Source: a virus
Lineage: Duplodnaviria > Heunggongvirae > Uroviricota > Caudoviricetes
Strand: one strand, 5' to 3'
DNA: 44,807 nucleotides
IMG/VR virus record: IMGVR_UViG_2541047834_000005
Span: 1 to 44,807 of that record
The notes beneath the pieces were generated by a model. It was given only the letters and a program-made list of their open reading frames with translations, did no database searches and was not told where the DNA came from. How positions within the stretch are numbered: the first letter of the stretch is position 1; every line of letters begins with the position of its first letter. Below, piece after piece: positions 10,758 to 37,039 of the stretch. Both the position numbers and the translations under genes were made by a program.

Positions 10758-12590
10758 TTACCTAAATCTGGTGTACCCAACATCGTGATTAATATCAATG
10801 CCACTGGAACGTGTTTCCGTAACCCGCATACCTGGTGGCATATTCATAAATGAAACCTTGATCTCGCCATCAACTTTTGGCGCAGAAGCTTTGTTAATCA
10901 TGAAGGGATTCGGGCCTGTGGCATCGGAGGCGTTGTTTGACTGAGCCGGATCCACCGCCGGATAAGGTGTGTATCCCCGCGCCGGTATTCCCGTCCCATA
11001 AGCATCATAAGCACCCGCGCCCCACTGCGCAGAGTTAATGGCATCGACCGTGTCACCGGAACTGTCGGTAAACCACTCAATAATTGGCTTCAGCTTGTCC
11101 CACATATCCTGAAACCACTTAACAACCGGTCCCCAGTTATTGATCACCATCCCCAGCGGCGACCAGGCAAAAACTTTCTTAAGGAGTTCCCAGCCAGCCT
11201 CAAAATAAGGACCAATGGTTTCCCAGAGTTTCTTAAAATAAGGTCCGACAACATCCCAGTTAGTGATAATTAATCCCGCAGCCAGGGCTATCGCCGTCGC
11301 AATCATGCCAATCGGCGTCATCGACATGATCCTGCTGACAATACTGATGGCACCGCCAACGCCCATCAATCCCAGTTTCAGAATCGCAAGACCGGCAGCA
11401 AGCCCGACGACGCCGCGAATAACCCGGGGATTTTCATCCGCAAACTTCGTGAATTTCTCCCCCAACTCCCCCAGCCACTGCGTGATATTTTTGGCGTCAC
11501 CAGAAAATGCGCCGCCAATAGCTGCAAGACCGTTAGTTGCGGTCCCCGTCATTGCCTCCCACAGGTTGGACAGCGTACCAAGCTGAGCCTGAACACGTTT
11601 ATTCAGGCTGGCCTGTTTATTCATCTTCTGCTGGATCTGATCGTAGCCATCCTTTCCTTTATCGATTAGTGCATTGACCACCTGAAGGGTTTCGGCATCA
11701 TCACCAAATATTGCCTTAAGTACGCCTGTTCGCTTAACGTCGGTCAGTTTTCGCAGCTTTGCCAGTTGCCTGAACATGTTATCAAGACCGCCAAAACTCC
11801 CTTTGCCGTCAGTAAAATCGAGCTGTACCCCGAGTTTCTGGCGGGCCATGATTTTATTGACGTCCCTGATTTTCTTAACGCTTAATCCGGACTGGATAAC
11901 TTTTCGCAGGGCGTTACCTGCCGACTCCCCGTTCATCCCCATCTGATCCATCATGACGCTGATGGGGGCAAGGCTCTGTGCAGCCTGAAGACCGTCCTTG
12001 TTCACCATCTTCAGAACAGAGCTGGTTTTAGTGAAGAAGGACAACATGTTGGTATCGTCAACGCCCAGATAAAACGCCTTCTGGATAGTGTCGAACAGCC
12101 CCATCATGTCTTTTGACGCCGTTCCGGTAGCATCCTGCATCTTTGCGGCAAACTCGGCAGCCGCTTCCGGTGTTTTTTTCAGTTGTACCGCAAGATAAGC
12201 TGTCGCTTTACCCACACCGCCAAGAATGTTTTCTGCCGGGATCCCCTGACGCACCAGCATCTGCATCATGTTCTGGAAATCAGCCGTTGTACCGGGTAGC
12301 TGATTACCCAGGCCAATAGCCAGTTTATTGATGTCCTGAAAGCTCTTTCCAACCTCGCCGTTCGCATCCATCATGGCGACTTTCAGCCCGGTGGCGGCGT
12401 TTTCCTGATCGGCATAAGATTTCAGGGAAAGCGTCAGACCCGCTGCCAGTCCGCCTCCAAGCGCCAGCCCACCCTGTGACGCTTCTTCCGCCTGGCGTTT
12501 AAATCCCCGGATTTTCTTTTGCATTTTCGACAGCGCGGGAGAAAGCCTGTCGACACCGGTGATCAACGCCTTAAGCTCAAATTCCGCCAT
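10758..12590 (-). CDS. Tail tape measure protein
   Basis: 610 aa, Ala/Gly-rich with central hydrophobic segments; follows chaperone genes. Confidence 0.8.
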   Translation of the reverse strand: MAEFELKALITGVDRLSPALSKMQKKIRGFKRQAEEASQGGLALGGGLAAGLTLSLKSYADQENAATGLKVAMMDANGEVGKSFQDINKLAIGLGNQLPGTTADFQNMMQMLVRQGIPAENILGGVGKATAYLAVQLKKTPEAAAEFAAKMQDATGTASKDMMGLFDTIQKAFYLGVDDTNMLSFFTKTSSVLKMVNKDGLQAAQSLAPISVMMDQMGMNGESAGNALRKVIQSGLSVKKIRDVNKIMARQKLGVQLDFTDGKGSFGGLDNMFRQLAKLRKLTDVKRTGVLKAIFGDDAETLQVVNALIDKGKDGYDQIQQKMNKQASLNKRVQAQLGTLSNLWEAMTGTATNGLAAIGGAFSGDAKNITQWLGELGEKFTKFADENPRVIRGVVGLAAGLAILKLGLMGVGGAISIVSRIMSMTPIGMIATAIALAAGLIITNWDVVGPYFKKLWETIGPYFEAGWELLKKVFAWSPLGMVINNWGPVVKWFQDMWDKLKPIIEWFTDSSGDTVDAINSAQWGAGAYDAYGTGIPARGYTPYPAVDPAQSNNASDATGPNPFMINKASAPKVDGEIKVSFMNMPPGMRVTETRSSGIDINHDVGYTRFR

Positions 12591-12765
12591 GTGCGCGTTT
12601 CTCCTGCTCTATCCTGTTTGCCTGACTGACCAGCAAGGGAATTTCACTGATCGGCATATTCAGCAATTCGAAGGGATTAATGCGCCAGTAGCTGGCGCAG
12701 TCAAAGAAGCGATCAGTGAGGTATTCAGCCGTCAGGCCTGGAGGAAAAAACCAGCCACAAGCCAC
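12577..12765 (-). CDS. Possible -1 frameshift extension of the tail assembly chaperone
   Basis: 62-aa ORF overlapping the 3' end of the chaperone ORF in another frame, directly upstream of the tape measure. Confidence 0.35.
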   Translation of the reverse strand: MACGWFFPPGLTAEYLTDRFFDCASYWRINPFELLNMPISEIPLLVSQANRIEQEKRAHGGI

Positions 12766-13001
12766 GCCGCTGCATTCAGGTCTGCCGGAGACATCTGGTC
12801 GACAGAGCTTTGCGGCACTTTCGCCAGCCGCACAATGTATTTCGATACAACATGCGCCAGAAGTCTGACGGACTCATCCTGATTCATCTGGTAGGGATAC
12901 CCCAGCTCGCGGACATCTTTCCCGGTGGGCTCATCAAACTCCAGTACGGAGAGTGTCTCGCCATGAGCGGTAATCGGTTTCTTTAACTCAAGCTCTTTCA
13001 T
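12732..13001 (-). CDS. Tail assembly chaperone
   Basis: 89 aa between tube and tape measure. Confidence 0.5.
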   Translation of the reverse strand: MKELELKKPITAHGETLSVLEFDEPTGKDVRELGYPYQMNQDESVRLLAHVVSKYIVRLAKVPQSSVDQMSPADLNAAAWLVAGFFLQA

Positions 13002-13357
13002 TACTGGTAATCCCCTTCTTCACCGTGGAACTCAAGATCAACCGTGCCTTCTTCGGCATTATGGTTCGCTTCGCCGTGCAGCCAGGCTGACGACAATACA
13101 TAGACCTGACCGTTCGCCAGCTCAGCAGTGATGGTCATCTCATCAGACGAGGTGATTTTGCTCACCGGAAAATTCTTCGGCACCTTGAAGGTCCCTTTGA
13201 CATAAGGCGCACGGTGAGTTTCCTTGCGGTCCACTGAACCGTCCAGGCCGATGATGTCATCATTGACCGTCCTGTTCATGGGCACCTCAATGCCGCCGGT
13301 CAGCGATAGCTGCTGACCGTCAATTTTGAAATAACAGGTTCCCCCGATACGGGCCAT
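13001..13357 (-). CDS. Tail tube protein (contractile tail)
   Basis: 118 aa immediately after the sheath gene. Confidence 0.7.
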   Translation of the reverse strand: MARIGGTCYFKIDGQQLSLTGGIEVPMNRTVNDDIIGLDGSVDRKETHRAPYVKGTFKVPKNFPVSKITSSDEMTITAELANGQVYVLSSAWLHGEANHNAEEGTVDLEFHGEEGDYQ

Positions 13358-14853
13358 TATGCAGACTCCTCTGAATACTGAAGACGGAACTGGTTAACCA
13401 CGGCAAAAACACGCAACTGGTTAACATAGTCAGGCGGGAACAGCGTGTTCAGGCGGTTCGGATCGCTGGCATCACGCTCCACAACCAGGTACTGCTTAAA
13501 CAGTTCGTAGTTTTCCACGATCCCCGCACGCTCAAGCTGACGGTAGGTTGCCAGCAGTTCCCCTTTGATTACCGCCGGGGTGACAATCGCCTGACCGGGA
13601 CCAAAGCGGGTACCGTCGCTGGCAAGCTTGTGACGCCCGTACTTACTGGTAATGACGGATTTCAGTTTGCGCAGTACATACGCACTGGTATGCAGCGTCT
13701 CGCTGTCGAGGTAGCTGTTATCCGCAACCCCGTAAGAATTTTTCCTGTACGTGGTGACATCACGCTGAATGCGCAGCACCCCGCTTTCGACATACGCCGT
13801 TGCCACGCCATGAGACAACAGGGTCTGCTGCTCGGTCATCGTGAACAGTTTCCCCTTCGGCGCAGGCAGCATACCCACCAGCTCACCGGTCTGCGTGGGA
13901 CGTGCCGGATCGTTGCGGATAAACACCGCTGCGCGGGCGGTACGGCTTGCCGCCAGCTCGTCGGCAGGCGTCTGGGTCTCTTTTTCGTACCCCGCCAGGG
14001 TAATGTGCTGCTGGTTAAACTGGTCACCAGCGGTCACCAGTTCTGACAGCGTGCCGATCTTTGCCGTATACACATGACCGTACAGCTGACGCGCATAGCT
14101 CCAGCGACCGCTGGTATCGTTCATCTCGGTCACCAGCGTGTTAACGGAGGCCGTGTCGTTGAACGGCAGGCCGATATAATCAAACGGCTCATCCGCCATT
14201 GCAGCCACCGCGCCGGTGAGAACCGGAGCACCCGTTCCGGCGGTACCCGTCGCCACGGCAATCTGTACGCCCGCTGGCAGCACTTCGCCCCCACCAAAGC
14301 CATAGTAATTGAGGCTGACAGGAATTTCATTCCCGCAAAGCCCCTTATGACGCGCGGTCAGTGTGACCACGCCTGCCGAAGATGAAGCCGTAAACGGCAG
14401 GGTCGGAACGGCATTGATGGCATCCTGGATACTGCTGACAATCATCGTGACGTTATCGCCGTTAGTCACCGGTGCCTGCACGCGGGTACGTCCCACATAC
14501 ACATTCACCGTGCCGGTTTCGGTTGCCGCCCCGGTCACCGTCAGCGTAACCGTTGCCGCCGCGCCTGTGGATTCAGGAACGGCAATCACATACAGCTCGC
14601 CAAACGGGTCAGTCTGGCGATAAGCCTCGACCATACGCGCCAGCTGACTTCCCGCACCACAAATCTGGCGTGCATAGTCTGCCGACGACATCAGTACCAG
14701 ACTGTTGGCAACAATCTCTGCACCGTTATTGGCATGACCAATCAGCAGCGATGCTCCGCTGTCCTGTGCAGTATTCGCCGCCTGGTTATCCATTTCCGCA
14801 TAAAACAGCGGAACCAGCGTATTCGACGGAATGGTGTTAAAGCTTATCGTCAT
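13357..14853 (-). CDS. Tail sheath protein (Mu L-like)
   Basis: 498 aa; size and position before the tube gene indicate a myovirus-type tail. Confidence 0.8.
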   Translation of the reverse strand: MTISFNTIPSNTLVPLFYAEMDNQAANTAQDSGASLLIGHANNGAEIVANSLVLMSSADYARQICGAGSQLARMVEAYRQTDPFGELYVIAVPESTGAAATVTLTVTGAATETGTVNVYVGRTRVQAPVTNGDNVTMIVSSIQDAINAVPTLPFTASSSAGVVTLTARHKGLCGNEIPVSLNYYGFGGGEVLPAGVQIAVATGTAGTGAPVLTGAVAAMADEPFDYIGLPFNDTASVNTLVTEMNDTSGRWSYARQLYGHVYTAKIGTLSELVTAGDQFNQQHITLAGYEKETQTPADELAASRTARAAVFIRNDPARPTQTGELVGMLPAPKGKLFTMTEQQTLLSHGVATAYVESGVLRIQRDVTTYRKNSYGVADNSYLDSETLHTSAYVLRKLKSVITSKYGRHKLASDGTRFGPGQAIVTPAVIKGELLATYRQLERAGIVENYELFKQYLVVERDASDPNRLNTLFPPDYVNQLRVFAVVNQFRLQYSEESA

Positions 14854-15007
14854 CGGTGTTCACCTTTTTATTCACGCGCCGGATATCACCCGCTGCTTCA
14901 CGGCGCAGCCAGTAGTTGTTCTCGTCAACATTTCGCCCTTCGACGGGCAAAAGGTCACCGCGGGCAGGGTCAGGCACTGACCGCCCTTTAACAGGTTTCA
15001 CAAACAT
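14837..15007 (-). CDS. Small hypothetical protein (56 aa) upstream of sheath
   Basis: ATG ORF (MFVKPVKGRSVPDPARGDLLPVEG...) filling the gap and overlapping the sheath start. Confidence 0.25.
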   Translation of the reverse strand: MFVKPVKGRSVPDPARGDLLPVEGRNVDENNYWLRREAAGDIRRVNKKVNTDDDKL

Positions 15008-15015
15008 GAAGATTC

Positions 15016-15576
15016 TCAGGAAGGAAGGGTTATTTCGGTGTGATGTTCGATATCGCCGTCAGGCCCGTTACCGGGCTCGAGATAATCAACATCAATCGCC
15101 AGCGTTTGCAGTTCATCCAGACTGTTCAGATCATCCTGCTGGCGGGTATCGTCTTCAGTCAGCTCGCTGATGACCGAAAAATCGAACTGATAAATCAGCT
15201 CATGACGATTCAGATCCAGCAGCGTGCCGCCGTCATAGGTAATCGGGTTACCGCACGCTTCCGGGTTCCAGCCCAGCAGGGCCTTAAAGAGCATCTGCCG
15301 GACATCGTCCACCACATCATACGAGGCAAACTGACCGCGCTCATCACGCCCGTTACTCAGTATGACAACCACGGAGAAGCCCTCTTTCAGCTCCTGCCAG
15401 TAGTCGGTCTGGCTTTTGTTTTCTCCCGGAGAGTCATCACCCGGTACCACATACGCCGCCGGGAGTCTCAGCTTTCCGACCTCCGGCAGATTTTTGAACT
15501 GTGCCGCGCCTGCCACCCGGTTTTCAAAATACGGGCAGCGGGCACGCAGCGCAGCAATAACAGGCGTCAGTTTCAT
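15016..15576 (-). CDS. Virion morphogenesis / tail completion protein
   Basis: 186 aa in the head-tail joining block. Confidence 0.4.
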   Translation of the reverse strand: MKLTPVIAALRARCPYFENRVAGAAQFKNLPEVGKLRLPAAYVVPGDDSPGENKSQTDYWQELKEGFSVVVILSNGRDERGQFASYDVVDDVRQMLFKALLGWNPEACGNPITYDGGTLLDLNRHELIYQFDFSVISELTEDDTRQQDDLNSLDELQTLAIDVDYLEPGNGPDGDIEHHTEITLPS

Positions 15577-16079
15577 CTGTGTCGTCTCTCCGGCTTCAGT
15601 GATTTACGCAATTCCCGCGCCAGAAAATAGCGTGTCCAGCTGCGGTTCTTTTCAAGAGTTTCCACCATGAAGTTATTACGTGGAGCCAGTCGCCAGCCGC
15701 TGCCACCGGATGCACCACGATGATGACTACGACGACGTTTTGCTCCTCCCCGGACACCAAAAAACAGAAACGCCGGATAGAAGTCACCAGAGATCATCCG
15801 GTTCCCCTTCCCGTTGCGCTGGTTAGGTGCAATGCGTGTCATAAAACCGGCTCGCTTTTTACTGGCTCTCGGCACCATATAACCAATCGAACGAGCCAGG
15901 CGTCCGGTCTGATAACCGGGGTTTTCACCCGGTGCCGACCGCGCACGGCGCATCACCAGCCGACGGGCATCACGCATATGACGCTGCCCAATCGTGACAA
16001 ACGCCCTCCGGACACGGGCGCGGTTAAAGCGCATCTCGGCGGGCTGCTGAACATCAACGTGAAAAAAGGGAGTCGCCAT
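15573..16079 (-). CDS. Head-tail joining protein (HK97 gp10-like)
   Basis: 168 aa, basic, overlaps neighbours. Confidence 0.4.
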   Translation of the reverse strand: MATPFFHVDVQQPAEMRFNRARVRRAFVTIGQRHMRDARRLVMRRARSAPGENPGYQTGRLARSIGYMVPRASKKRAGFMTRIAPNQRNGKGNRMISGDFYPAFLFFGVRGGAKRRRSHHRGASGGSGWRLAPRNNFMVETLEKNRSWTRYFLARELRKSLKPERRHR

Positions 16080-16464
16080 TGCTGCCTCCGTGACTCTGCC
16101 TACATTCGCCCAGCTCCGTACACTCCAGCAGCAGAAAGCGCCGCGCCCCGTTCAGATCACGCTGACGTTTCACCCGGTACACACTGTCATCACAGACCAC
16201 CTCATAATCAGCAGTGATCCCCCGGCGGTAACGAATGGTGATGTAATGGGTGATGGCGTCCCCGGTCTGCGCGGTTTCCTGCCAGGTGGTGGCACTGGTC
16301 TGGATAACCTTCGCCCATGTCCGGAACGTAACCGGGTATTGAGGCTCCACGCCAAAGTTATCCGCGGGCATATCCACCCGCTGGCGGATCAGGACGCGTT
16401 TATTCAGTTCACCGGGGTCCGGCAGAATGTAGGTTGCGCTGGTCTGCGCCTGACGAATTTTCAT
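16054..16464 (-). CDS. Head-tail adaptor / head closure protein
   Basis: 136 aa following the gp6-like connector. Confidence 0.45.
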   Translation of the reverse strand: MKIRQAQTSATYILPDPGELNKRVLIRQRVDMPADNFGVEPQYPVTFRTWAKVIQTSATTWQETAQTGDAITHYITIRYRRGITADYEVVCDDSVYRVKRQRDLNGARRFLLLECTELGECRQSHGGSNGDSLFSR

Positions 16465-16784
16465 TGCGGAAAGTACCTGTACGGGCCGACAAGCCAGCCA
16501 AAACTCTGCGGCATGTCGAGTTTCTCCACTTCCGTAACCGACGAGCGGTTTTCGTAAAAATGGCTGATAAGCATCAGCATCCCCAGACGAATATCATCCG
16601 GCAGGTGCAGCCCGTCCGGATCGCTGTCCGGAATGGTTTCATCCGGTGCATAGAGCTTCCGGTTCAGATACGTTTCCGTCCGCTTTTGTGCCGCACAGGC
16701 CAGCAGTTGCAGATGGCGGTCATCAGCATCGAAATCCTCATCCAGCCGGAGTTGGGCTTTAATCTCTTCCATTGTCAGAAGCAT
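16461..16784 (-). CDS. gp6-like head-tail connector protein
   Basis: 107 aa, acidic N-terminus, typical family member after the capsid gene. Confidence 0.6.
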   Translation of the reverse strand: MLLTMEEIKAQLRLDEDFDADDRHLQLLACAAQKRTETYLNRKLYAPDETIPDSDPDGLHLPDDIRLGMLMLISHFYENRSSVTEVEKLDMPQSFGWLVGPYRYFPQ

Positions 16785-16786
16785 AC

Positions 16787-16987
16787 TCAGCCCTCTTTAC
16801 TGGTCGTGGCTTTTTTCTCTTTTGCCGCTTTACTGCTTTTTGCACTGATTCCGCGCTCTGCTAACCCGGCCTGAAGTGCAATCTCCTGCACCCGGGCAGG
16901 AAGCGCCCCGTCGTCATACTCACCGGCCCGAATGACCTCAACACGCATACCGTCCGGTGACCATTTCAGATCTTGTTTCAGGATCAT
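16787..16987 (-). CDS. Small hypothetical head-associated protein
   Basis: 66-aa ORF between capsid and connector. Confidence 0.35.
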   Translation of the reverse strand: MILKQDLKWSPDGMRVEVIRAGEYDDGALPARVQEIALQAGLAERGISAKSSKAAKEKKATTSKEG

Positions 16988-17036
16988 GATTCTTCACCCG
17001 TCAGAACAGGGGGCGCGGTTCCGCGCCCCTGAGTGA

Positions 17037-18242
17037 TTACGCCGCTGCAATCTTCAGCAGTTTGATGGCCTGCGAATCGACCAGCATCCCGCCGGTGCGC
17101 TTGGTGGTATAAAAACCGACAAACGGTTTATTGGTGTACGGGTCACGCAGAATGCGGGTGCCGATACGGTCAACGATGGTGTAACCCCGTTTGAAGTTAC
17201 CAAATGCAATGGCTTTCGCATCAGCGGCGATATCCGGCATCTGTTCGTTTTCAGCGATACCGTAACCCGCCAGAGAGGACGGCTGCCCCAGTTCCAGCCC
17301 CGGACGCCACAGATAGTTACCCTCGGTGTCTTTCAGCAGACGTATGGCAAACAGGCTGTTGTTGTTCATCATGAACTTCGCGCCAGTGCGGTGTGCCTTA
17401 CGCAGCGTGTAAATCAGTTTGATAATGGCGTCTGCGGTCACCGCGGTCGCTTCGCCGGATACAATATGCTGAAGTTTGCCGAACGCCCGGACCTTGTCGG
17501 TTTCATCAGTGGATTCATACGCCAGGAACCCTTTCGGCTTCTTGGTGCCATTGCCTGAGGTAAAGGCAATTTCTTCCTGTTCGGCAAATTCGGTTGCCAG
17601 CTCGCTGTTGATCCAGGCCTCCACGTTGAAGAAGGCATCGTCCAGCATTTTCTGGGTAGCCTGCGGGTTGCCGTAGATTTCCCCCATGAGAGGTTCAATC
17701 AGCTCCAGTCTGGAGGTGGCAGTCTGGGATCGCGTATCCGTTTCCCCCACCCATCCGGAAGCCGTACCGCCCAGATTCACCAGTTTTTTGTAGTCGGAAC
17801 CGCCAACGGTGATCACCGTGGCTTCCTGACGCATCACCACTTCATCTTTCAGCAGGTTAAGAATGTTGCGATCCAGTTCTTCCGGCACGGCGTAGCCACC
17901 GTCTTCATCGGTACCCACCTGCAATGCCTTACGCTCCAGATCGCGCAGACCGTCTTCACGGCCTTTACGCAGGAAGCCCACAAACGCCTCTTTATGCTCG
18001 GTGGCCAGTTTATTTTGCGCTCCACCTGCCGGACGTTTCAGCTCAAGCAGCTCTTTTTCAAGGTCGCTTTTGAGATTTTCCAGCTCGCTGAGTTTCCCGT
18101 TCAGGGTTTCCACCTGCCCGGCAAGCTTGCCTTTTTCCTGCTCAATCGCATCCACGCGCTTGTCGTTCTTTGCTTTGAAGTCGTCAAACTTCTGCTGCAG
18201 CTCCTGCGCGACCTGTTCGACATCTTTAATATCAACCGCCAT
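17037..18242 (-). CDS. Major capsid protein, HK97 family
   Basis: 401 aa with N-terminal coiled-coil delta domain, then HK97-fold capsid region. Confidence 0.85.
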   Translation of the reverse strand: MAVDIKDVEQVAQELQQKFDDFKAKNDKRVDAIEQEKGKLAGQVETLNGKLSELENLKSDLEKELLELKRPAGGAQNKLATEHKEAFVGFLRKGREDGLRDLERKALQVGTDEDGGYAVPEELDRNILNLLKDEVVMRQEATVITVGGSDYKKLVNLGGTASGWVGETDTRSQTATSRLELIEPLMGEIYGNPQATQKMLDDAFFNVEAWINSELATEFAEQEEIAFTSGNGTKKPKGFLAYESTDETDKVRAFGKLQHIVSGEATAVTADAIIKLIYTLRKAHRTGAKFMMNNNSLFAIRLLKDTEGNYLWRPGLELGQPSSLAGYGIAENEQMPDIAADAKAIAFGNFKRGYTIVDRIGTRILRDPYTNKPFVGFYTTKRTGGMLVDSQAIKLLKIAAA

Positions 18243-18256
18243 CGTATTTCTCCTGA

Positions 18257-18943
18257 TTAGAAGTTCAGATTTTTCAGTGCATTCAGTGCAGAGCCCACAT
18301 CCTCAGCGTCGCGCAGGGACAGTGCGCCATAGCCCCCGGCCATGAATGCTTTGGCCTGGGTACGGGAGAGTCCGACATCACGCAGGACTCTTTCGATTTT
18401 TTTCTGTTCGGGGATTTCCCCGCGGGCCAGTGCGTTCTTGACGTCGCTGATCCGCGCCTCGTCGTTAGACGGGAACGTCACCAGGCTGACTTCCCAGAGG
18501 TCGATTTCTTTCAGCAGAAAGGCTTCTTTGCTCCGGTCGTATTCCCAGTCTTTCAGGACGTACCCAATAGAAAGGCCGGTTAACGAACCGGCCTTCATGT
18601 GTGCATGTGCGCGTTTTGCGAGGGGATCATCATCAATAAGCAACCGTCCCCTGACGTAAAGCCCGACATCGTCTTCCTTCATTTCGGTGTAAACACCGAT
18701 GGGTTCATCCATGCGGTGCTGCCAGAGCAGCGCAGGTAACGCTTTTCTGTCACTCCACGCCCGCAGGGAAGCAGCAAATGCCCCGGACATCACCACATCA
18801 TCGTGGCTGTCCTTTACACCAAAGACGGAGCCATACCCTTCAAACTCACCGGAGTCACTGACAGATTTCAGACTCAGCGGTACATCAAGACGTTGTTTCG
18901 TCTGCATTGGCGTTATCCTTCTGCTTACCGGCTTTACTGCCAT
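18257..18943 (-). CDS. Prohead protease (HK97 family)
   Basis: 228 aa between portal and capsid. Confidence 0.8.
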   Translation of the reverse strand: MAVKPVSRRITPMQTKQRLDVPLSLKSVSDSGEFEGYGSVFGVKDSHDDVVMSGAFAASLRAWSDRKALPALLWQHRMDEPIGVYTEMKEDDVGLYVRGRLLIDDDPLAKRAHAHMKAGSLTGLSIGYVLKDWEYDRSKEAFLLKEIDLWEVSLVTFPSNDEARISDVKNALARGEIPEQKKIERVLRDVGLSRTQAKAFMAGGYGALSLRDAEDVGSALNALKNLNF

Positions 18944-20126
18944 CGGAGGGTTTCGTGGTCATGTTCATCGGTGTGAGATAGACATCACCACCGGGTCGTG
19001 GATTCATATCTTCCAGGTCGCGGCAGTCATTGGGAGAGTAAATTCCCCAGTTGATCCCGGTGGCGTAGGCTTCAAAACGGGACTTCATATCCCCGCGCAG
19101 TAACGCCCCGGCGTTAAATTTGGCGTAATAAACGCCCTGCTTACTTTTTCGTACCAGTCCGGTGTTGATCCGCTGTTCGATGCGGGTCAGATACGGCACC
19201 AGTGAATAGTTGATAAATCCCAGCCCCAGCTCTTCGATATTGTTGAAGGTGGCGCGATCGGTGTTCTGCACCATGTGCAACGGCACCCGGAACAGACGAC
19301 AGATTTCTTCAAGCTGAAACTTGCGGGTTTCCAGGAACTGGCTGTCCTCGGCGTTCAGCGCCATCGACTTCCAGTCCAGCCCCATCTCAAGGATCATCGG
19401 GCGGTGAGCATTGCCAAGCCCGGTGTGACGCTCCTCAAAATCTTTCTTCAGGCGCTCATAAGCCTGATCTGACAGCGTCTGCTCTGTACGCAACACACCC
19501 GACGTCACCGCGCCATTGCTGAACAGTCTGGCCCCGTGCTCTTCGGTCGCTGCCGCCAGCGATATTGCCTCGCGGGCATAGGCGATGGGATTCAGCCCCA
19601 CCAGTCCGTCCAGCGTCAGCGTGCGCACATGCCAGATATCCTCCTGGCTCAGTACATCCGTGGAGCCATCCGGGAATGTGACCTGATAGACCGGCTCCCA
19701 GCTACTGTTAAGCTTCGGTACCACACAGCCGGGATCGACGGGCAGCAGTTCAGCCACTTCGCCAAATGCTTTCACTTTGTAGGCGTAAAAGTTTCCCCGC
19801 AGGCACAGACAGGTGACCACCAGCTCCCAGAACTCCTGCGGCGTCATATAGCCATTGGGATGCGTGGAGATCAGCTTATGCAGACGTTCGCCAGCGGCTC
19901 TCTGTTTCAGACTGCCGTTCAGGTGATACAGGTTGCAGGGCAACATCCCGACCGACTCCGCCAGCACCCTGACACAGGAAAAAACCGCCGTCAGTCGCAT
20001 GGCCCGCTGGCTGCTGATCTGCTTTCCGGTATAGGTGTCGTAGGACAACCCGATAACATCCGCCAGCTCTGCTGGCGTGGTCACCGGTGCGTCACTTTTT
20101 CGTTGAAATAATCCCGAAAAGAACAC
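18885..20126 (-). CDS. Portal protein (HK97 family)
   Basis: 413 aa following terminase. Confidence 0.85.
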   Translation of the reverse strand: MFFSGLFQRKSDAPVTTPAELADVIGLSYDTYTGKQISSQRAMRLTAVFSCVRVLAESVGMLPCNLYHLNGSLKQRAAGERLHKLISTHPNGYMTPQEFWELVVTCLCLRGNFYAYKVKAFGEVAELLPVDPGCVVPKLNSSWEPVYQVTFPDGSTDVLSQEDIWHVRTLTLDGLVGLNPIAYAREAISLAAATEEHGARLFSNGAVTSGVLRTEQTLSDQAYERLKKDFEERHTGLGNAHRPMILEMGLDWKSMALNAEDSQFLETRKFQLEEICRLFRVPLHMVQNTDRATFNNIEELGLGFINYSLVPYLTRIEQRINTGLVRKSKQGVYYAKFNAGALLRGDMKSRFEAYATGINWGIYSPNDCRDLEDMNPRPGGDVYLTPMNMTTKPSDGSKAGKQKDNANADETTS

Positions 20127-20308
20127 TATTTACCTCCGCCGACAGACGACTGTGTACGGTCGAGATATCGCGCCACCAGCCACGACCAGAACAGACACAA
20201 CGCCCCGGCAACAACAAACCCCGCCGGGGGATAAATCAGCCAGGCACCATACGCCAGCAAAAGCGCCCCCAGCACGCCCACCAGAGGCGCGAGAATCAGC
20301 ATGATCAT
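20126..20308 (-). CDS. Small two-helix hydrophobic protein between terminase and portal
   Basis: 60 aa, [48 protein letters not shown]...; fills the terminase-portal gap. Confidence 0.35.
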
Positions 20309-20319
20309 AATTACCTCAG

Positions 20320-22053
20320 TTAAAGCGAGCGGATCCCATAGGACTCAATGTGGTCAGACAGCGTGTCTTCTTTCTCGTACAGCATGGCTCTGCCAACCGC
20401 CATAATCAGCGCAACTGCACCATCGATTTTGTTTTCCGCCTGCTCTTTGACGGGCTTCACTAAATCATCGTTACCTGGCATGTTTTTGCCGACCACATTG
20501 CCGATACACCAGGTCATGATGGGATTGCCGTCATGATGAAAGCGTCCCGATTCAATCGCTGCCTCCAGCTCTTTCATCGGGTCGGACATATTGGCGAAGT
20601 TCTGGACGATAGTAACGGGATTCAGGTCTTCATCAGCAAGGTCATGTGACAGCCCGGTCGCTCCGAAAGGGTCGATGGGTGACTCACTGACCGGGCTGAT
20701 TTTGTTCGCCGCTTTGGCCTCTTCGAGGATGTAGCGATAATCCACCTCTGCACCATCGGTAACGGTCAGAACGCCCATTTCCACCCATTTCTGAAAGCGT
20801 TCGGCTGTCCGGCGATCTTCATTTTTCTCGACGCTGTACACCGTGTCATACGGTACCCAGAAACGCGGGGCCACACTGTAGTAATGCGTTTTACCGTCAA
20901 TCTCGCGGGTATAAAGTCGCGCCATGCTGTTCATATCCAGCTTACGCGCCAGGTCAAAGGCCAGAATGCACGGCTGCCCCTCGAACTGCTCAAGAGTCAG
21001 TGATTTATCCTCGCAGCTCTGCCAGCTCACCAGGTTGAAATACGCCGAACGCGCCGACACCCAGATATTGAGGTGTTTTGTTTTAAAGACGTTTGCCAGA
21101 CGGGCGTTATTTTTCGCACGCTGCTGCTGACTTAACAAAAATTCGCGATAAACCGACACGCCAATATTTGGATTGGCTTTTTCCAGCACCTGCGGGTCGG
21201 TCCAGTCGTCACCTTCATCAACGGTATAGATGATCCCGAACAGTTCATCGTTAGGCACCGAGCCGTTGAGCATCTCGATGACTTCCCGCCGCTTGTCGTA
21301 GCACGGCCCCTCAATGTTGTACCCGGCGGTGGTGATGGCCCACATCAGTGGCTGACGTCGCGCCCCCATCCCGGTAAGCATTGTGGTATAAAGCGCATCG
21401 GTGGCATGCTCGTGATATTCATCAACCACGGCACAGTGGGGTGATGAACCATCACCTGGGTTGCCGATCAGCGGTTCAAACCGCGCGCCATCCTCCGGAC
21501 GGTTCATGTTTGAGGCGTTAACCTCAATCCCGAACGCTTCCGTCAGCATGGGTGTGCGTTTACACATCAGTCGCGCCGGGCGAAAGACTTCCCACGCCTG
21601 TTTCTCTGTCGTGGCACCGGAATACACTTCCGCGCCAAACTCGTTATCACAGGCAAAACAATACAGGGCAACACCGGCAGAGATTGCTGATTTGCCGTTC
21701 TTACGGGGGATTTCGGTGTACACCTCCCGGAAGCGGCGCAACCGGGTGCCTTTATTGACCCAGCCAAACGCACAGCAGATCACAAATAGCTGCCACGGCT
21801 CCAGCGTGATGGGCATCCGTTTGAATGCCCACTCCCCCTTGGTGTGCGGCAACAGCTGAATAAATTTCGCGGCCCGTTCAGCCAGGTCCTTGTCGAAGCG
21901 GTAACGAAACGACTTACTTTTTTCCGCCATCAGGTCATCAAGATGGCGCTGGCAGGCCTGAATCACAAACTGGCAGGCAACAATCTTTCCGCGGACGACA
22001 TCCCGGGCATACTGATTTGCAGCATTTACGTTGGGGTAAGATTTCCGGCTCAT
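20320..22053 (-). CDS. Terminase large subunit
   Basis: 577 aa, Terminase_1-like with ATPase and nuclease regions. Confidence 0.9.
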
Positions 22054-22553
22054 GATTCGATGATTTTCAGAAACGGGTTAGTGGCTTTCTTCTTCCCCGC
22101 CAGGCCAATCAGACGCTGGCGGCTGCTGGGGTCGAGTCCGAGCATTGCCCCCGTACTGCTCATCTCGGACTCCTGTTCTTTTTTGGCAGTCAGCTCCGGA
22201 TTTTTGACCATACCGCCCATTGCACCGGTGATGGTGTTGCCCTGTCTGGCAATATTTTTCACGGCACGTCGCCAGAACTCGTAGGCCACGCACCACCGCT
22301 CAAGCACCGCAAGGTCAGTCACGCACAGCAGGCCCTGACCGCAGAGTTCTTTAGTTGTCAGTTGCCACATGATCGTAGCGAGAGGGAGATCTTCTTCAGC
22401 GAACCACTCCGGTGGCTCAACACCTTTGATGGGCGTAAAAACAGGTTCATCTTTATTCAGGGCTCGCTTGCCGGGGTTTCCGGCCAGCGCCTTGCGCGCC
22501 GTTGGCTTGGGGCGACGCCCGGAACGCCCCGCCGTTCCAGCCATATGCGGCAC
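22050..22553 (-). CDS. Terminase small subunit (P27-like)
   Basis: 167 aa, basic N-terminus, overlaps the terminase large start. Confidence 0.7.
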
Positions 22554-32856: not shown

Positions 32857-33051
32857 CTATTTGTTTTTCTTGTTGCTTGGGAAAGGACGAACTTCCTCTC
32901 CAATCACACTGCCATCAGGCTTTACCGTAACCATAATGTTACGGCCTGCCAGAATGGCCTTGCTGATAGCGCACTGGATTACACCAAAGTCACTGGCTGC
33001 TTTAGCCTGTCCATGGATTTTGGCGTAATCGGCAAGTGTCATTCGAATCAT
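32857..33051 (-). CDS. cro: Cro repressor
   Basis: [33 protein letters not shown]...FPSNKK aligns with lambda Cro; GGAGAG RBS. Confidence 0.8.
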
Positions 33052-33080: not shown

Positions 33081-33151
33081 AGAATACTACAGGTATTCAA
33101 AGCAATCAATACTCAGGGTATTTTTAGTTTAAGTACCTTAGTTATTAGAAT
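33081..33151. promoter_or_regulatory. oR region: two AATAC-N5-GTATT operators (33083-33097, 33108-33122), pR (-10 TATTCT, -35 TTGATT on minus strand) and leaderless-type pRM (-10 TAGAAT 33146-33151)
   Basis: Two perfect dyads 25 bp centre to centre overlapping candidate pR hexamers; TAGAAT ends 6 nt before the cI ATG with no SD. Confidence 0.55.
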
Positions 33152-33157
33152 TAAGCT

Positions 33158-33874
33158 ATGGAAAATAAAAAATCACTGACGACAGAACAGCTCGAAGACG
33201 CTAAGCGGCTTAAGGCTTTGTATGAGTCAAAAAAGAAAGAATTGGGAATAACCCAATACTCAATCGCTGATGAACTGGGTATCACCCAAGGAGCGGTAGG
33301 GCATTATCTTAATGGCAGAAACGCGCTAAACGTTGAGGTTGCATCTGGTTTTGCACGACTGTTGCAAGTCTCAATTGCTGATTTTAGCCAGTCAATTGCT
33401 GCCAAGGTTGCAGAACAGGCAGAAAGCCTTAAGAGCGATGCCAACGTAAGGTATGCAGGGGAATACAGAGCAGGAAAGAGGTATCCGGTGTTAAGCAGTA
33501 TCCAGGCTGGCTCGTGGTGTGAAGCATGCGAACCATACACCATTAAAGACATAGATGTTTGGCTTGAGTCTGACGCGCATATTCAAGGTAATGCGTTCTG
33601 GCTTAAAGTGGAAGGTGATTCAATGACGGCACCGGTTGGGTTAAGCATTCCAGAGGGAACATTCGTTCTTTTCGATACCGGAAGGGAGGCGATCAACGGC
33701 AGCTTGGTCATAGCAAAACTTTCTGACTCTAACGAAGCAACATTCAAGAAGCTGATAATCGACGGCGGAAATAAATACCTCAAGGGACTTAACCCTGCAT
33801 GGCCTCTCGTGCCAATCAATGGAAACTGCAAGATTATAGGCGTTGCAATTGAGACAAAACTAAGGCTGGTTTGA
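33158..33874 (+). CDS. cI: cI repressor (HTH + LexA/S24-like autocleavage domain)
   Basis: 238 aa; N-terminal HTH (QYSIADELGITQGAVGHYLNG) and C-terminal S24 region (GDSM...K). Confidence 0.85.
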   Translation: MENKKSLTTEQLEDAKRLKALYESKKKELGITQYSIADELGITQGAVGHYLNGRNALNVEVASGFARLLQVSIADFSQSIAAKVAEQAESLKSDANVRYAGEYRAGKRYPVLSSIQAGSWCEACEPYTIKDIDVWLESDAHIQGNAFWLKVEGDSMTAPVGLSIPEGTFVLFDTGREAINGSLVIAKLSDSNEATFKKLIIDGGNKYLKGLNPAWPLVPINGNCKIIGVAIETKLRLV

Positions 33875-34260
33875 TCACGCAAGGGGCGCTTATGGTTGGA
33901 ACCGCTATAGCAAGCTTTTTTGGGATGTTGGCAATCTCGACAATTTACGGCTTAGCGCATGCTTTTATTGCGAAATCTCTATCAGAAAAAATAAGCCAGG
34001 CTTGGGCGCATAGATCAGCTCGTTTCATGATTCTGGTGATCATAGCAATACAAGGGATATCTGCATTTATCCTCTATGGTTCAAGCTTATACCTGTTGTA
34101 TCAAGGCGCGACATTTACGCCTTACACCAGTGATTACGGAACGCTATACGATGGTAGTGAAGACATCTCTATGGCTTGGATTGTCTTTGGTTTATCTATG
34201 GCCGTGTCTGTTGTAGCAGACATCATTAAGGTAATTCTCGTCTTAACCTTCGCTGACTAA
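33871..34260 (+). CDS. Small polytopic membrane protein coupled to cI (rexAB position)
   Basis: 129 aa with three to four hydrophobic helices; start overlaps the cI stop; between cI and oL/pL. Confidence 0.5.
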   Translation: MITQGALMVGTAIASFFGMLAISTIYGLAHAFIAKSLSEKISQAWAHRSARFMILVIIAIQGISAFILYGSSLYLLYQGATFTPYTSDYGTLYDGSEDISMAWIVFGLSMAVSVVADIIKVILVLTFAD

Positions 34261-34346
34261 CCCATAATCCCGGCAGCAATAGCTATCGGGATCCACTTCA
34301 CATATCCCGCATAAAAAGCACTGAACAAGCAGACACCGAAAAAATA

Positions 34347-34432
34347 AATATCCTTTGTATTCATTTGCTTATCATTATTTCACCAAAAATAAATACCTTG
34401 GGTATTTACACAATAAAATACCTACAGTATTC
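34347..34432 (+). promoter_or_regulatory. oL/pL: three operator dyads (34347-34361 imperfect, 34392-34406, 34417-34431) with -35 TTTACA (34404-34409) and -10 TATTCT (34427-34432)
   Basis: Same AATAC-N5-GTATT dyad as at oR; 17-bp spacer; both hexamers overlap operators. Confidence 0.55.
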
Positions 34433-34479
34433 TTTAGCCATCAGCAGGACGCTGGAAGCCAAACGGAACAGATTGGCAG

Positions 34480-34520: not shown

Positions 34521-34851
34521 ACCAAAGAGTAGTTGGCTTTGGGGTGTGGTGAAGGGTTCATGGACGGGAATATGTCGCACGTAAAGCGGCGAGGCCTGCG
34601 GGACTATTGCCGAATTGAAGTCGGACGAAGCGGGTCGAAATGGGTCTCCCACCTACCACACCACCAAAGCTAATCATCTGAGGAACAGAAAATGTTAGAC
34701 ATCATGACCAACCCAATTCTCGGTGGTTTAGTTACCACATTCGCCATCTGCTTCGGTTTCACTATCTGGTCTGAAGTAGATGACTGGATGTGGGAACGCA
34801 AAAACAAATAATCATCGACACACAAGGATGTGCACCTACCCGGAGGTCAAC

Positions 34852-35935: not shown

Positions 35936-36070
35936 GCACTGTGTATTCATTCCAACGAGTGAATACACGGAGCAATGTCGCTCGTAACTAAACAGGAGCC
36001 GACTTGTTCTGATTATTGGAAATCTTCTTTGCCCTCCAGTGTGAGGGCAATTTTTTTTGATGGAGGATAT

Positions 36071-37039
36071 ATGAGTGAAGTAACAGATTTAGTTGTTATT
36101 GAAAAAGCAAATGCAATGACTGTATTTCAGTCTGCCGACCAGATTGAAGAAATCCTTCAAAAGGTTGAACGTGAAGTTATGTCCTTTGTGCCTGATATCA
36201 CAACGGCAAAGGGCAGAAAGGAGATCGCTTCTCTGGCGTATAAAGTTGCGCAGACGAAAACATATCTCGATGGTCTTGGCAAAGACCTTGTTGCTGAACT
36301 GAAGGAAATTCCAAAGCTAATTGATGCTAACCGCAAGACAGTGCGTGATCGCCTTGATGAGCTGAAAGCCAAGGCACGCCAGCCTCTTACTGATTATGAG
36401 GAAGAACAGGCACGGATTAAAGCCGAAGAAGAAGCTAAGGCAGCAGCTGAAGCTCTCGCAAAGCAAATTGAGTCTGACCATGAAATAGCGATTTTGATGG
36501 ATCGCGAATTTGACCGCCAAAGAGAAGAGGCAAGACTCAAAGCGGAGCAGGAAAAGCGAGAGCATGAAGAACGCTTAAAAAGAGAAGCTGAAGAGAAAGC
36601 CAGAGCAGAAGCCGAAGCAAAGGCAAAAGCCGAAATTGAAGCAGCAGCAAGGCGAGAAGCAGAAGCTAAGGCCGCAGCGGAACGTGCAGAGCGTGAACGC
36701 ATTGAAGCCGAGCAACGAGCACAGCGCGAAGCAAAAGAGGCAGCAGAACGAGCTGAAAGAGAAAAGCAGGCGGCAATTGAAGCAGAACGCCGAAAAGCAC
36801 AGGAGGAGGCTGAACGAATCAGGCGCGAGGCTGAAGCAAAAGAGCAAGCCAGAATAGCAGAAGAAAAAAGAATCAAGGAAGAAGAAGAGCGTAGAGCAAA
36901 GGATAAAGCTCACCGGAAAGAAGTAAATAACAAAATACTTGCTGACCTTATCAAGGTTGGCGCATCAGAAGATGTTGCTAAAAATATCATAACAGCCATC
37001 GTAAAAGGCGAAGTATTCGCAACAAAAATAACCTACTAA
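36071..37039 (+). CDS. Hypothetical protein with long charged E/A/K/R-rich coiled-coil
   Basis: Start at ATG 36071 preceded by GGAGG; central ~180 residues are almost pure EAKR repeats; globular N- and C-terminal regions. Confidence 0.6.
   Translation: MSEVTDLVVIEKANAMTVFQSADQIEEILQKVEREVMSFVPDITTAKGRKEIASLAYKVAQTKTYLDGLGKDLVAELKEIPKLIDANRKTVRDRLDELKAKARQPLTDYEEEQARIKAEEEAKAAAEALAKQIESDHEIAILMDREFDRQREEARLKAEQEKREHEERLKREAEEKARAEAEAKAKAEIEAAARREAEAKAAAERAERERIEAEQRAQREAKEAAERAEREKQAAIEAERRKAQEEAERIRREAEAKEQARIAEEKRIKEEEERRAKDKAHRKEVNNKILADLIKVGASEDVAKNIITAIVKGEVFATKITY

Follow-up and report, generated by a model that had tools for sequence, protein, structure and literature searches.

The question raised by this locus is what function is served by a small gene lodged between the cI repressor gene and the oL/pL region of a lambdoid prophage, the slot that elsewhere holds rexAB. 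The locus lies in IMG/VR record IMGVR_UViG_2541047834_000005, a Caudoviricetes sequence of 44,807 nucleotides, the whole of which we refer to as the window. A mechanical reading gives an open reading frame (ORF) of 129 codons on the plus strand, running from a TTG at 33871 that overlaps the cI stop codon to position 34260, and a first-pass annotation had correctly picked out both this ORF and its place in the rexAB slot, directly after cI and before oL/pL. What that annotation had not recognized is that the ORF is hkaS of coliphage HK620 (record AF335538; protein AAK28867), first annotated in 2001, as 'unknown'. The match to the PHROG 6534 profile covers 122 of 122 positions (E = 3.6e-79; the function label in PHROGs is likewise unknown), and the product is 97.5–99% identical at the protein level to HkaS of phages HK620, HK630, mEpX2 and HK140, HK620 itself standing at 97.5% by tblastn. 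In HK620 the same gene occupies the same place after cI with the same operators. Nothing material differs between the two, and no record gives a function, the RefSeq entry (WP_000233125) being a hypothetical protein. We regard the identity and anatomy of the ORF as hkaS as close to certain. The gene has thus been known and annotated since 2001 and represents no new kind of system.

The gene is shorter than its mechanical reading. Both RefSeq and the HK620 record begin the protein at an ATG at 33892, giving 122 amino acids, and this start is common to all homologues, which open with M-(V/I)-G at that point. A Shine–Dalgarno sequence, AAGGGG at 33881–33886 on the plus strand, can be read from the sequence 5 nt before this ATG, and divergent loci keep an AAGG 7–10 nt ahead of their ATG. 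The TTG at 33871 was rejected as an over-extension: besides the shared homologue start, the Salmonella loci have an in-frame TAA immediately before the hkaS ATG, and locus L007 has no in-frame start codon upstream of it. With the TTG falls the first-pass proposal that the protein starts at the cI stop codon and is translationally coupled to the repressor by overlap. Since the start is at 33892, the cI cistron (33158–33874, plus strand; a repressor with HTH_3 and Peptidase_S24 domains) and hkaS (33892–34260, plus strand) are separated by 17 nt, a gap in which we found no promoter-like or terminator-like site. Because the two genes share a strand and lie so close together with no intervening signal, the sequence makes it very likely that they are co-transcribed, presumably from pRM in the lysogen and, while lysogeny is being established, from pRE.

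Codon comparisons indicate that hkaS is a real gene under selection and no chance ORF. Against the Hafnia-like homologue dN/dS is 0.13 for hkaS and 0.03 for cI, the range given for hkaS being 0.13–0.2. Against the Salmonella and L007 homologues the synonymous sites are saturated alike in the two genes (pS ~0.8), and cI and hkaS have therefore long co-diverged; amino-acid identity in the same comparison is 86–89% for cI and 52–61% for HkaS. These values point to purifying selection on HkaS, at an amino-acid rate approximately four times that of cI. Across the synonymous-saturated lineages a length of exactly 122 amino acids and 38 invariant residues are kept. Full-length hkaS is present in 146 of 5,426 complete E. 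coli genomes (~2.7%), always on the chromosome, and the strains that bear it are diverse, coming from animal, food and human sources. It could still be argued that hkaS is a decaying or functionless remnant riding on its linkage to cI, given that frameshifted copies exist in phage HF4s and in the singleton clusters P0005, P0007 and P0009. Such copies are rare: intact clusters contain hundreds of member sequences, and the three frameshifted clusters one or two each. The remnant explanation is largely refuted by the selection analysis, with dN/dS well below 1 and both length and invariant residues maintained, and the confident AlphaFold2 model described below supports a folded protein. We consider it very improbable indeed.

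HkaS is predicted to be an inner-membrane protein with three transmembrane segments in an N-out/C-in orientation. The 122-residue form has three Kyte–Doolittle hydrophobic peaks, at approximately residues 3–27, 45–70 and 92–121, and an AlphaFold2 model built from a seven-sequence alignment (pLDDT 92.3, pTM 0.79) has helices at residues 2–29, 31–38, 41–73 and 89–121, together with a small hairpin in the second loop. The first-pass annotation had anticipated three to four transmembrane helices; hydrophobic helices are indeed found by both approaches, and their number is three (the long helices 2–29, 41–73 and 89–121), not four. In six divergent homologues the net charge of loop 1 is +3 to +5 and that of loop 2 is −1 to −4, from which the positive-inside rule predicts an external N-terminus, a cytoplasmic loop 1 and C-terminus, and a periplasmic loop 2. 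Conservation is unevenly spread over these parts. The C-terminal tail, (I/F)(L/F)VLTFAD, has a mean pairwise identity of 87% with 7 of 9 positions invariant, and cytoplasmic loop 1, K(I/V)(S/T)QAW.H(R/K).ARF, has 65% with 6 of 17 invariant; for periplasmic loop 2 the values are 46% and 2 of 21. Four invariant polar residues, Q54, S106, D110 and K113, lie inside helices. The C-terminus is hydrophobic (VILVLTFAD), and the protein as a whole is almost entirely transmembrane, with no soluble sensor domain.

By all our searches the HkaS family is very narrow and confined to lambdoid prophages of the Enterobacterales. A word-indexed search among 5.8 billion proteins recovered 12 clusters at 90% identity, and an exhaustive profile search of all 1.84 billion 50%-identity representatives returned one full-length representative and one 44-residue fragment. 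The sources named are E. coli, Hafnia and Salmonella, to which locus scanning added a Buttiauxella copy. All the loci examined have hkaS immediately behind cI and ahead of oL/pL, with cro adjoining too, and the resulting cro-cI-hkaS cassette travels with unrelated N, O/P and recombination genes. It is carried by podoviruses (HK620, HF4s), siphoviruses (HK630, mEpX2, HK140), Stx2c phages and the myovirus-type prophage of the window.

The slot in which hkaS sits offers a guide to its possible role. Published accounts treat the stretch from the repressor gene to N as a hotspot where mosaicism and accessory loci are concentrated (PMC7067206, PMC8585504, each citing Degnan et al. 2007). Exclusion genes such as rexAB, 933W stk and 434 hex are a common part of pRM transcripts (PMC3564112), and bstA is among the exclusion loci downstream of a prophage repressor (PMC8585504). 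A scan of one genome per species for relatives of the window cI gave 80 loci, among which the slot proved hypervariable despite the relatedness of the repressors. We ran through PADLOC 20 sampled genes that immediately follow cI relatives elsewhere in the Enterobacterales, and seven gave strong matches: RexA (L014), BstA (L017), PDC-S42 (L021), PDC-M63A/DUF6932 (L026), the HipA-like PDC-M03A (L059), PDC-S43 (L064) and a CapP-like metalloprotease (L070). Hex homologues occupy the slot in three further loci (L066, L067, L075), and together these cases agree with the first-pass view that exclusion functions reside here. The remaining cargo includes an NYN-domain protein, a Tlde1-domain protein, a DUF1275 membrane protein and several small membrane peptides; some loci have no ORF of at least 45 amino acids, and the slot of P22 is empty. 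Within this hypervariable cI-N slot, hkaS is an accessory cargo (moron) gene.

Other small membrane proteins are also found directly downstream of cI (L016, L018, L035, L050, L056 and L083), comprising peptides of 50–52 amino acids, a 122-residue three-transmembrane protein with a CxxC...CxxC pattern and the 260-residue DUF1275 protein. PADLOC gave no match for the four of them that were run (L016, L035, L056, L083). These small slot membrane proteins form an unexplored set of possible exclusion factors.

By analogy with its known occupants, the slot supports an exclusion or defence role for a protein expressed in lysogens. The immunity operon would read pRM/pRE, cI, hkaS, a hairpin and then oL/pL, with hkaS as the second and last cistron, so that HkaS would be made in lysogens along with the repressor and, at the inner membrane, would protect the lysogen from other phages. 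We infer both the expression in lysogens and any defence function from these analogies and from the operon layout. That HkaS has an anti-phage role of some kind seems to us slightly better than an even bet, and for the fuller description, a lysogen-expressed membrane accessory protein with such a role, the chances are evenly balanced. We class hkaS as a probable addition to the known class of repressor-operon accessory and exclusion genes. The leading mechanism would be a block of genome entry by a single protein, as exerted by P22 SieA, T4 Imm and HK97 gp15. We prefer it because HkaS is small, has neither a sensor domain nor a partner, and evolves fastest in its periplasmic loop; as a specific mechanism an entry block is nonetheless a tentative suggestion that we would sooner doubt than assert.

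Comparison with characterized systems helps to locate HkaS among these possibilities. RexB occupies the same slot between cI and oL/pL, on the same strand as cI, and both proteins are small, span the inner membrane several times and are presumably produced by lysogens. RexB has 144 residues and is conventionally described with four helices, whereas HkaS has 122 residues and three. The two show no sequence relationship (hhalign probability 0.7%), and RexB has the sensor RexA beside it, whereas up to oL/pL the sole other ORF near hkaS is an unconserved antisense frame for 35 amino acids. The first-pass judgment that the protein is unlike RexB and lacks a RexA-like partner was accordingly sound on both counts.

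The likeness to RexB in position and membrane character nevertheless admits a reading in which HkaS is an abortive-infection effector, depolarizing or permeabilizing the inner membrane upon a phage trigger received directly or via a host factor, so that the infected lysogen dies before any phage is released. Such an effector would be a sub-case of the anti-phage role and a rival of the entry block, after which we rank it second. The slot is held elsewhere by RexAB and BstA (PMC8585504), the invariant polar residues within the helices are as might be found in an oligomeric pore or channel, and the predicted three-helix N-out/C-in layout is shared with class I holins. Set against this, HkaS has no sensor partner and no soluble domain with which to detect infection, and it is homologous to neither RexB nor holins (hhalign 0.5% to the class I holin gp13 of P22). 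HkaS also lacks the charged C-terminal tail and the dual-start motif typical of holins, and its gene belongs to the immunity operon, not to a late lysis cassette. We consider an abortive-infection effector unlikely.

P22 SieA, an inner-membrane protein that suffices by itself to prevent DNA injection (PMC10883804), resembles HkaS in being a small prophage protein with three predicted transmembrane segments, those of HkaS likewise by prediction. The two are not homologous (hhalign 0.3%, for the P22 type of SieA), and whereas sieA adjoins the ejection-protein genes and has its own promoter, hkaS is part of the immunity operon and travels with the repressor. SieB of P22 is equally distant in sequence (hhalign <1%). 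Hex of phage 434 is encoded, as HkaS would be on its operon layout, by the second cistron of the pRM transcript, following cI; it confers heterologous exclusion and makes lysogens more stable by preventing the 434 and P22 repressors from undergoing RecA-stimulated cleavage (PMC3564112). It too has no homology to HkaS (hhalign 0.1%). On re-annotation the start of hex overlaps the cI stop and its product has a signal-peptide-like N-terminus and a soluble body, whereas HkaS is an integral membrane protein encoded 17 nt after cI. BstA of prophage BTP1 and Stk of 933W are further examples of single-gene defence cargo directly downstream of the repressor (PMC8585504, PMC3564112), and a BstA homologue occupies the slot behind a relative of the window cI (L017); as a DNA-binding abortive-infection protein and a kinase, respectively, they are large, soluble and unrelated to HkaS in sequence and architecture. 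By analogy, then, HkaS comes closest to P22 SieA in architecture, which makes SieA the best mechanistic comparison, and closest to RexB and Hex in position.

Two side observations concern Hex itself. The 134-residue protein of phage 434 (L095:2427–2831) has at its N-terminus MIRIAALLSILLTTSANS/ECW, which resembles a cleavable signal peptide, and homologues of the protein occupy the equivalent slot after other relatives of cI (L066, L067 and L075, ~3609–4040). A periplasmic Hex would sit badly with the published cytoplasmic block of RecA-stimulated cleavage (PMC3564112).

Several findings weigh against an anti-phage role of HkaS, or against an entry block in particular. The best-conserved parts of the protein, loop 1 and the C-terminal tail, face the cytoplasm, unlike what would be expected of a pure periplasmic injection blocker, and the cassette crosses virion types and so, unlike SieA, is not matched to one ejection apparatus. 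Pfam, NCBIfam and PADLOC contained nothing significant (TssN, at E = 0.03, fell below its cut-off), hhalign probabilities were under 1% against each of RexB, SieA, SieB, Hex and the P22 holin, and fold searches retrieved only non-specific helical bundles. Accordingly HkaS belongs to no characterized exclusion family; a search for a solved structure of a relative found none. In the literature search no paper named hkaS together with HK620, and the mEpX2 papers contained no functional studies. Approximately half of the sampled slot cargo carries no defence annotation, so that position is suggestive and not diagnostic, and lambda lysogens also express accessory genes unconnected with defence, such as lom and bor (PMC7067206).

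A different explanation is that HkaS acts in lysogenic conversion and has nothing to do with phages. It would alter the envelope physiology of the host, for example by affecting stress or acid tolerance, by acting as a transporter or by modulating a signalling protein, and would thereby raise the fitness of the lysogen. The precedent of lom and bor favours it, as does the presence in the slot of membrane proteins that do not look like defence genes, among them the DUF1275 protein. The conserved cytoplasmic loop and tail would suit binding to a conserved host protein, and the E. coli that carry hkaS come from animals, food and humans alike. A family so extremely narrow, changing at about four times the amino-acid rate of cI, is however more in keeping with a conflict gene than with a housekeeping modulator, and the slot is enriched in known defence genes. 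On this evidence we think a conversion factor improbable, at perhaps one chance in several.

The association of hkaS with cI bears on whether HkaS might act on the repressor. Searching the 80 loci with an HkaS profile found hkaS in one, L038 from an uncultured Buttiauxella (E = 1e-47). In this locus (L038:3007–4043) the N-terminal DNA-binding domain of cI and the Cro protein are unrelated to those of the window, whereas the C-terminal S24 domain matches its counterpart there at 88% identity and hkaS comes next; this is a clear case of recombination inside cI, between its two domains. The swap implies that hkaS follows the 3′ half of cI and not the immunity specificity. Throughout the five divergent hkaS lineages, the neighbouring cI has a C-terminal domain no less than 88% identical to that of the window. 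An obligate tie between HkaS and this type of cI was nevertheless rejected, as six loci with cI C-terminal domains 84–90% identical lack hkaS (L013, L014, L030, L031, L033, L035): five have other cargo, including RexA in L014, and L031 has no ORF of at least 45 amino acids. The association is most simply read as physical linkage.

Two proposals would nonetheless make more of it. HkaS might modulate the switch of its own prophage in the manner of Hex, with the cI C-terminal domain or RecA-stimulated autocleavage as its target and possibly in response to the state of the membrane, and so stabilize lysogeny or tune induction. Hex stabilizes lysogens from the same slot (PMC3564112), the similarity of the C-terminal domain extends over all five lineages, even L038, and the conserved faces of HkaS are cytoplasmic. 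Yet equally similar C-terminal domains precede other cargo or none, HkaS has no homology to Hex, and a protein embedded in the membrane is unlikely to inhibit directly the cleavage of a DNA-bound repressor, all of which leaves such a modulator with a small probability. A bolder version, which we rate a little lower still, would make HkaS, besides a defence protein, a membrane-embedded partner of the repressor whose loop 1 and VLTFAD tail touch the cI S24 domain, coupling the state of the envelope or phage attack to repressor cleavage and induction. It is suggested by the co-occurrence of hkaS with the S24 domain even where the DNA-binding domain and Cro have been swapped, as in L038.

If HkaS does exclude phages, a very small, single-gene and membrane-only defence would join the catalogue, and the small membrane or secreted proteins of the cI-N slot would constitute a neglected reservoir of prophage defences. 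PADLOC has no model for any of the small membrane or secreted slot cargo tested here, the Hex relatives included. That HkaS founds a new family of single-gene, sensor-less inner-membrane anti-phage proteins, missing from current defence catalogues, we would put at somewhat less than even chances. Its carriers include ~2.7% of complete E. coli genomes, Stx2c-converting phages and the laboratory phages HK620, HK630 and mEpX2, and phage exclusion by HkaS would bear on host range in phage therapy. Should the protein have no phage phenotype, it would be one more orphan prophage membrane protein.

The regulatory sites around hkaS can be placed by comparison with HK620. The window contains a lambdoid immunity region in inverted orientation, with cII and cro on the minus strand followed by the OR operators, cI (plus strand), hkaS, the OL operators with pL, and an N-like antiterminator gene. 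The cro gene (32857–33051, minus strand) is divergent from cI, encodes a member of the lambda Cro family (Pfam Cro, E = 3.6e-26) and is where the HK620 cro annotation maps. Operators OR1–OR3 with pR and pRM map from the HK620 annotation to 33082–33147 and contain exact operator cores, ATACnnnnnGTAT, at 33084 and 33109. On the far side of hkaS, OL2, OL1 and pL span 34391–34433 (plus strand), as shown by the HK620 annotation, exact operator cores and a promoter-like TTTACA-17-TATTCT.

Between hkaS and these operators the HK620 annotation places the immunity terminator tIMM (34342–34372) and OL3 (34369–34385). An operator-like palindrome, AAATATCCTTTGTATTC, lies at 34346–34362 with one mismatch to the operator core, and this stretch is conserved in five divergent loci save for a few spacer positions. 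Since the annotated OL3 is not conserved, the palindrome is probably the true OL3, which would put it within the tIMM of HK620. The HK620 authors located tIMM after hkaS, and in the window a GC-rich hairpin begins 7 nt past the hkaS stop codon (34267–34292, plus strand) and is present in both the centroid and the minimum-free-energy folds. No T-run follows it, and unrelated hairpins stand at the same place in the Salmonella and L007 loci; we take the hairpin to be probably the 3′ end or a stabilizer of the immunity transcript.

Two further candidates in this region were rejected. An exact operator core, ATACCTGTTGTAT, one of five exact cores in the 44.8 kb, occurs inside hkaS at 34089–34101. 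It consists of codons for an invariant YLLY, its nucleotides are not conserved in five divergent homologues, and the core is lost there by synonymous changes, so that its occurrence is a coincidence. The hydrophobic antisense ORF of 35 amino acids mentioned above (34257–34364, minus strand), which converges on hkaS and starts inside the operator region, was considered as a partner or toxin and dismissed, as it is not conserved in L003, L007 and L009. It is annotated as hypothetical in HF4s, and an extra hypothetical protein listed under 34257–34364 in the HK630 and HK140 records is probably the same frame; by its lack of conservation it is probably no gene. At the other end of hkaS, the 3′ end of cI (33790–33874 in the window) is where, in NC-SV, a lambdoid prophage, a defence-related small RNA named svsR has been reported (PMC12803456, 2026).

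The wider window is a mosaic. The region 33100–34554 matches, at 98.6–99% identity, the immunity regions of coliphages HK620, HK630, HK140, mEpX2, HF4s and HZ41, of several vB_EcoP phages and of two Stx2c-converting phages. At ~34535 HK620-like sequence gives way to sequence like that of 933W and other Stx phages, a switch that marks a mosaic joint immediately beyond the immunity cassette. The prophage, viewed over 926–3674, 3973–22553 and 42319–44807, joins an early region of lambdoid type to myovirus-type genes for morphogenesis, including those for a baseplate hub (8986–10311) and a tail sheath (13357–14853). One end carries a gtrA/gtrB/gtrC-like O-antigen conversion module and the other a lambda-type integrase beside a pectinesterase (ybhC-like) gene, a layout typical of serotype-converting phages. 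Rfam and tRNA scans of the window gave no matches. Downstream of the immunity region, nutL and the N-like gene flank a hydrophobic ORF of 39 amino acids (34692–34811, plus strand; PHROG 7482, E = 8e-25). Further along, 35975–37039 (plus strand) encodes a 354-residue protein with a long low-complexity middle rich in Glu, Lys, Ala and Arg (PHROG 1376, function listed as unknown); the RefSeq name of its homologue, 'cell envelope biogenesis protein TolA', looks like a misannotation driven by composition.

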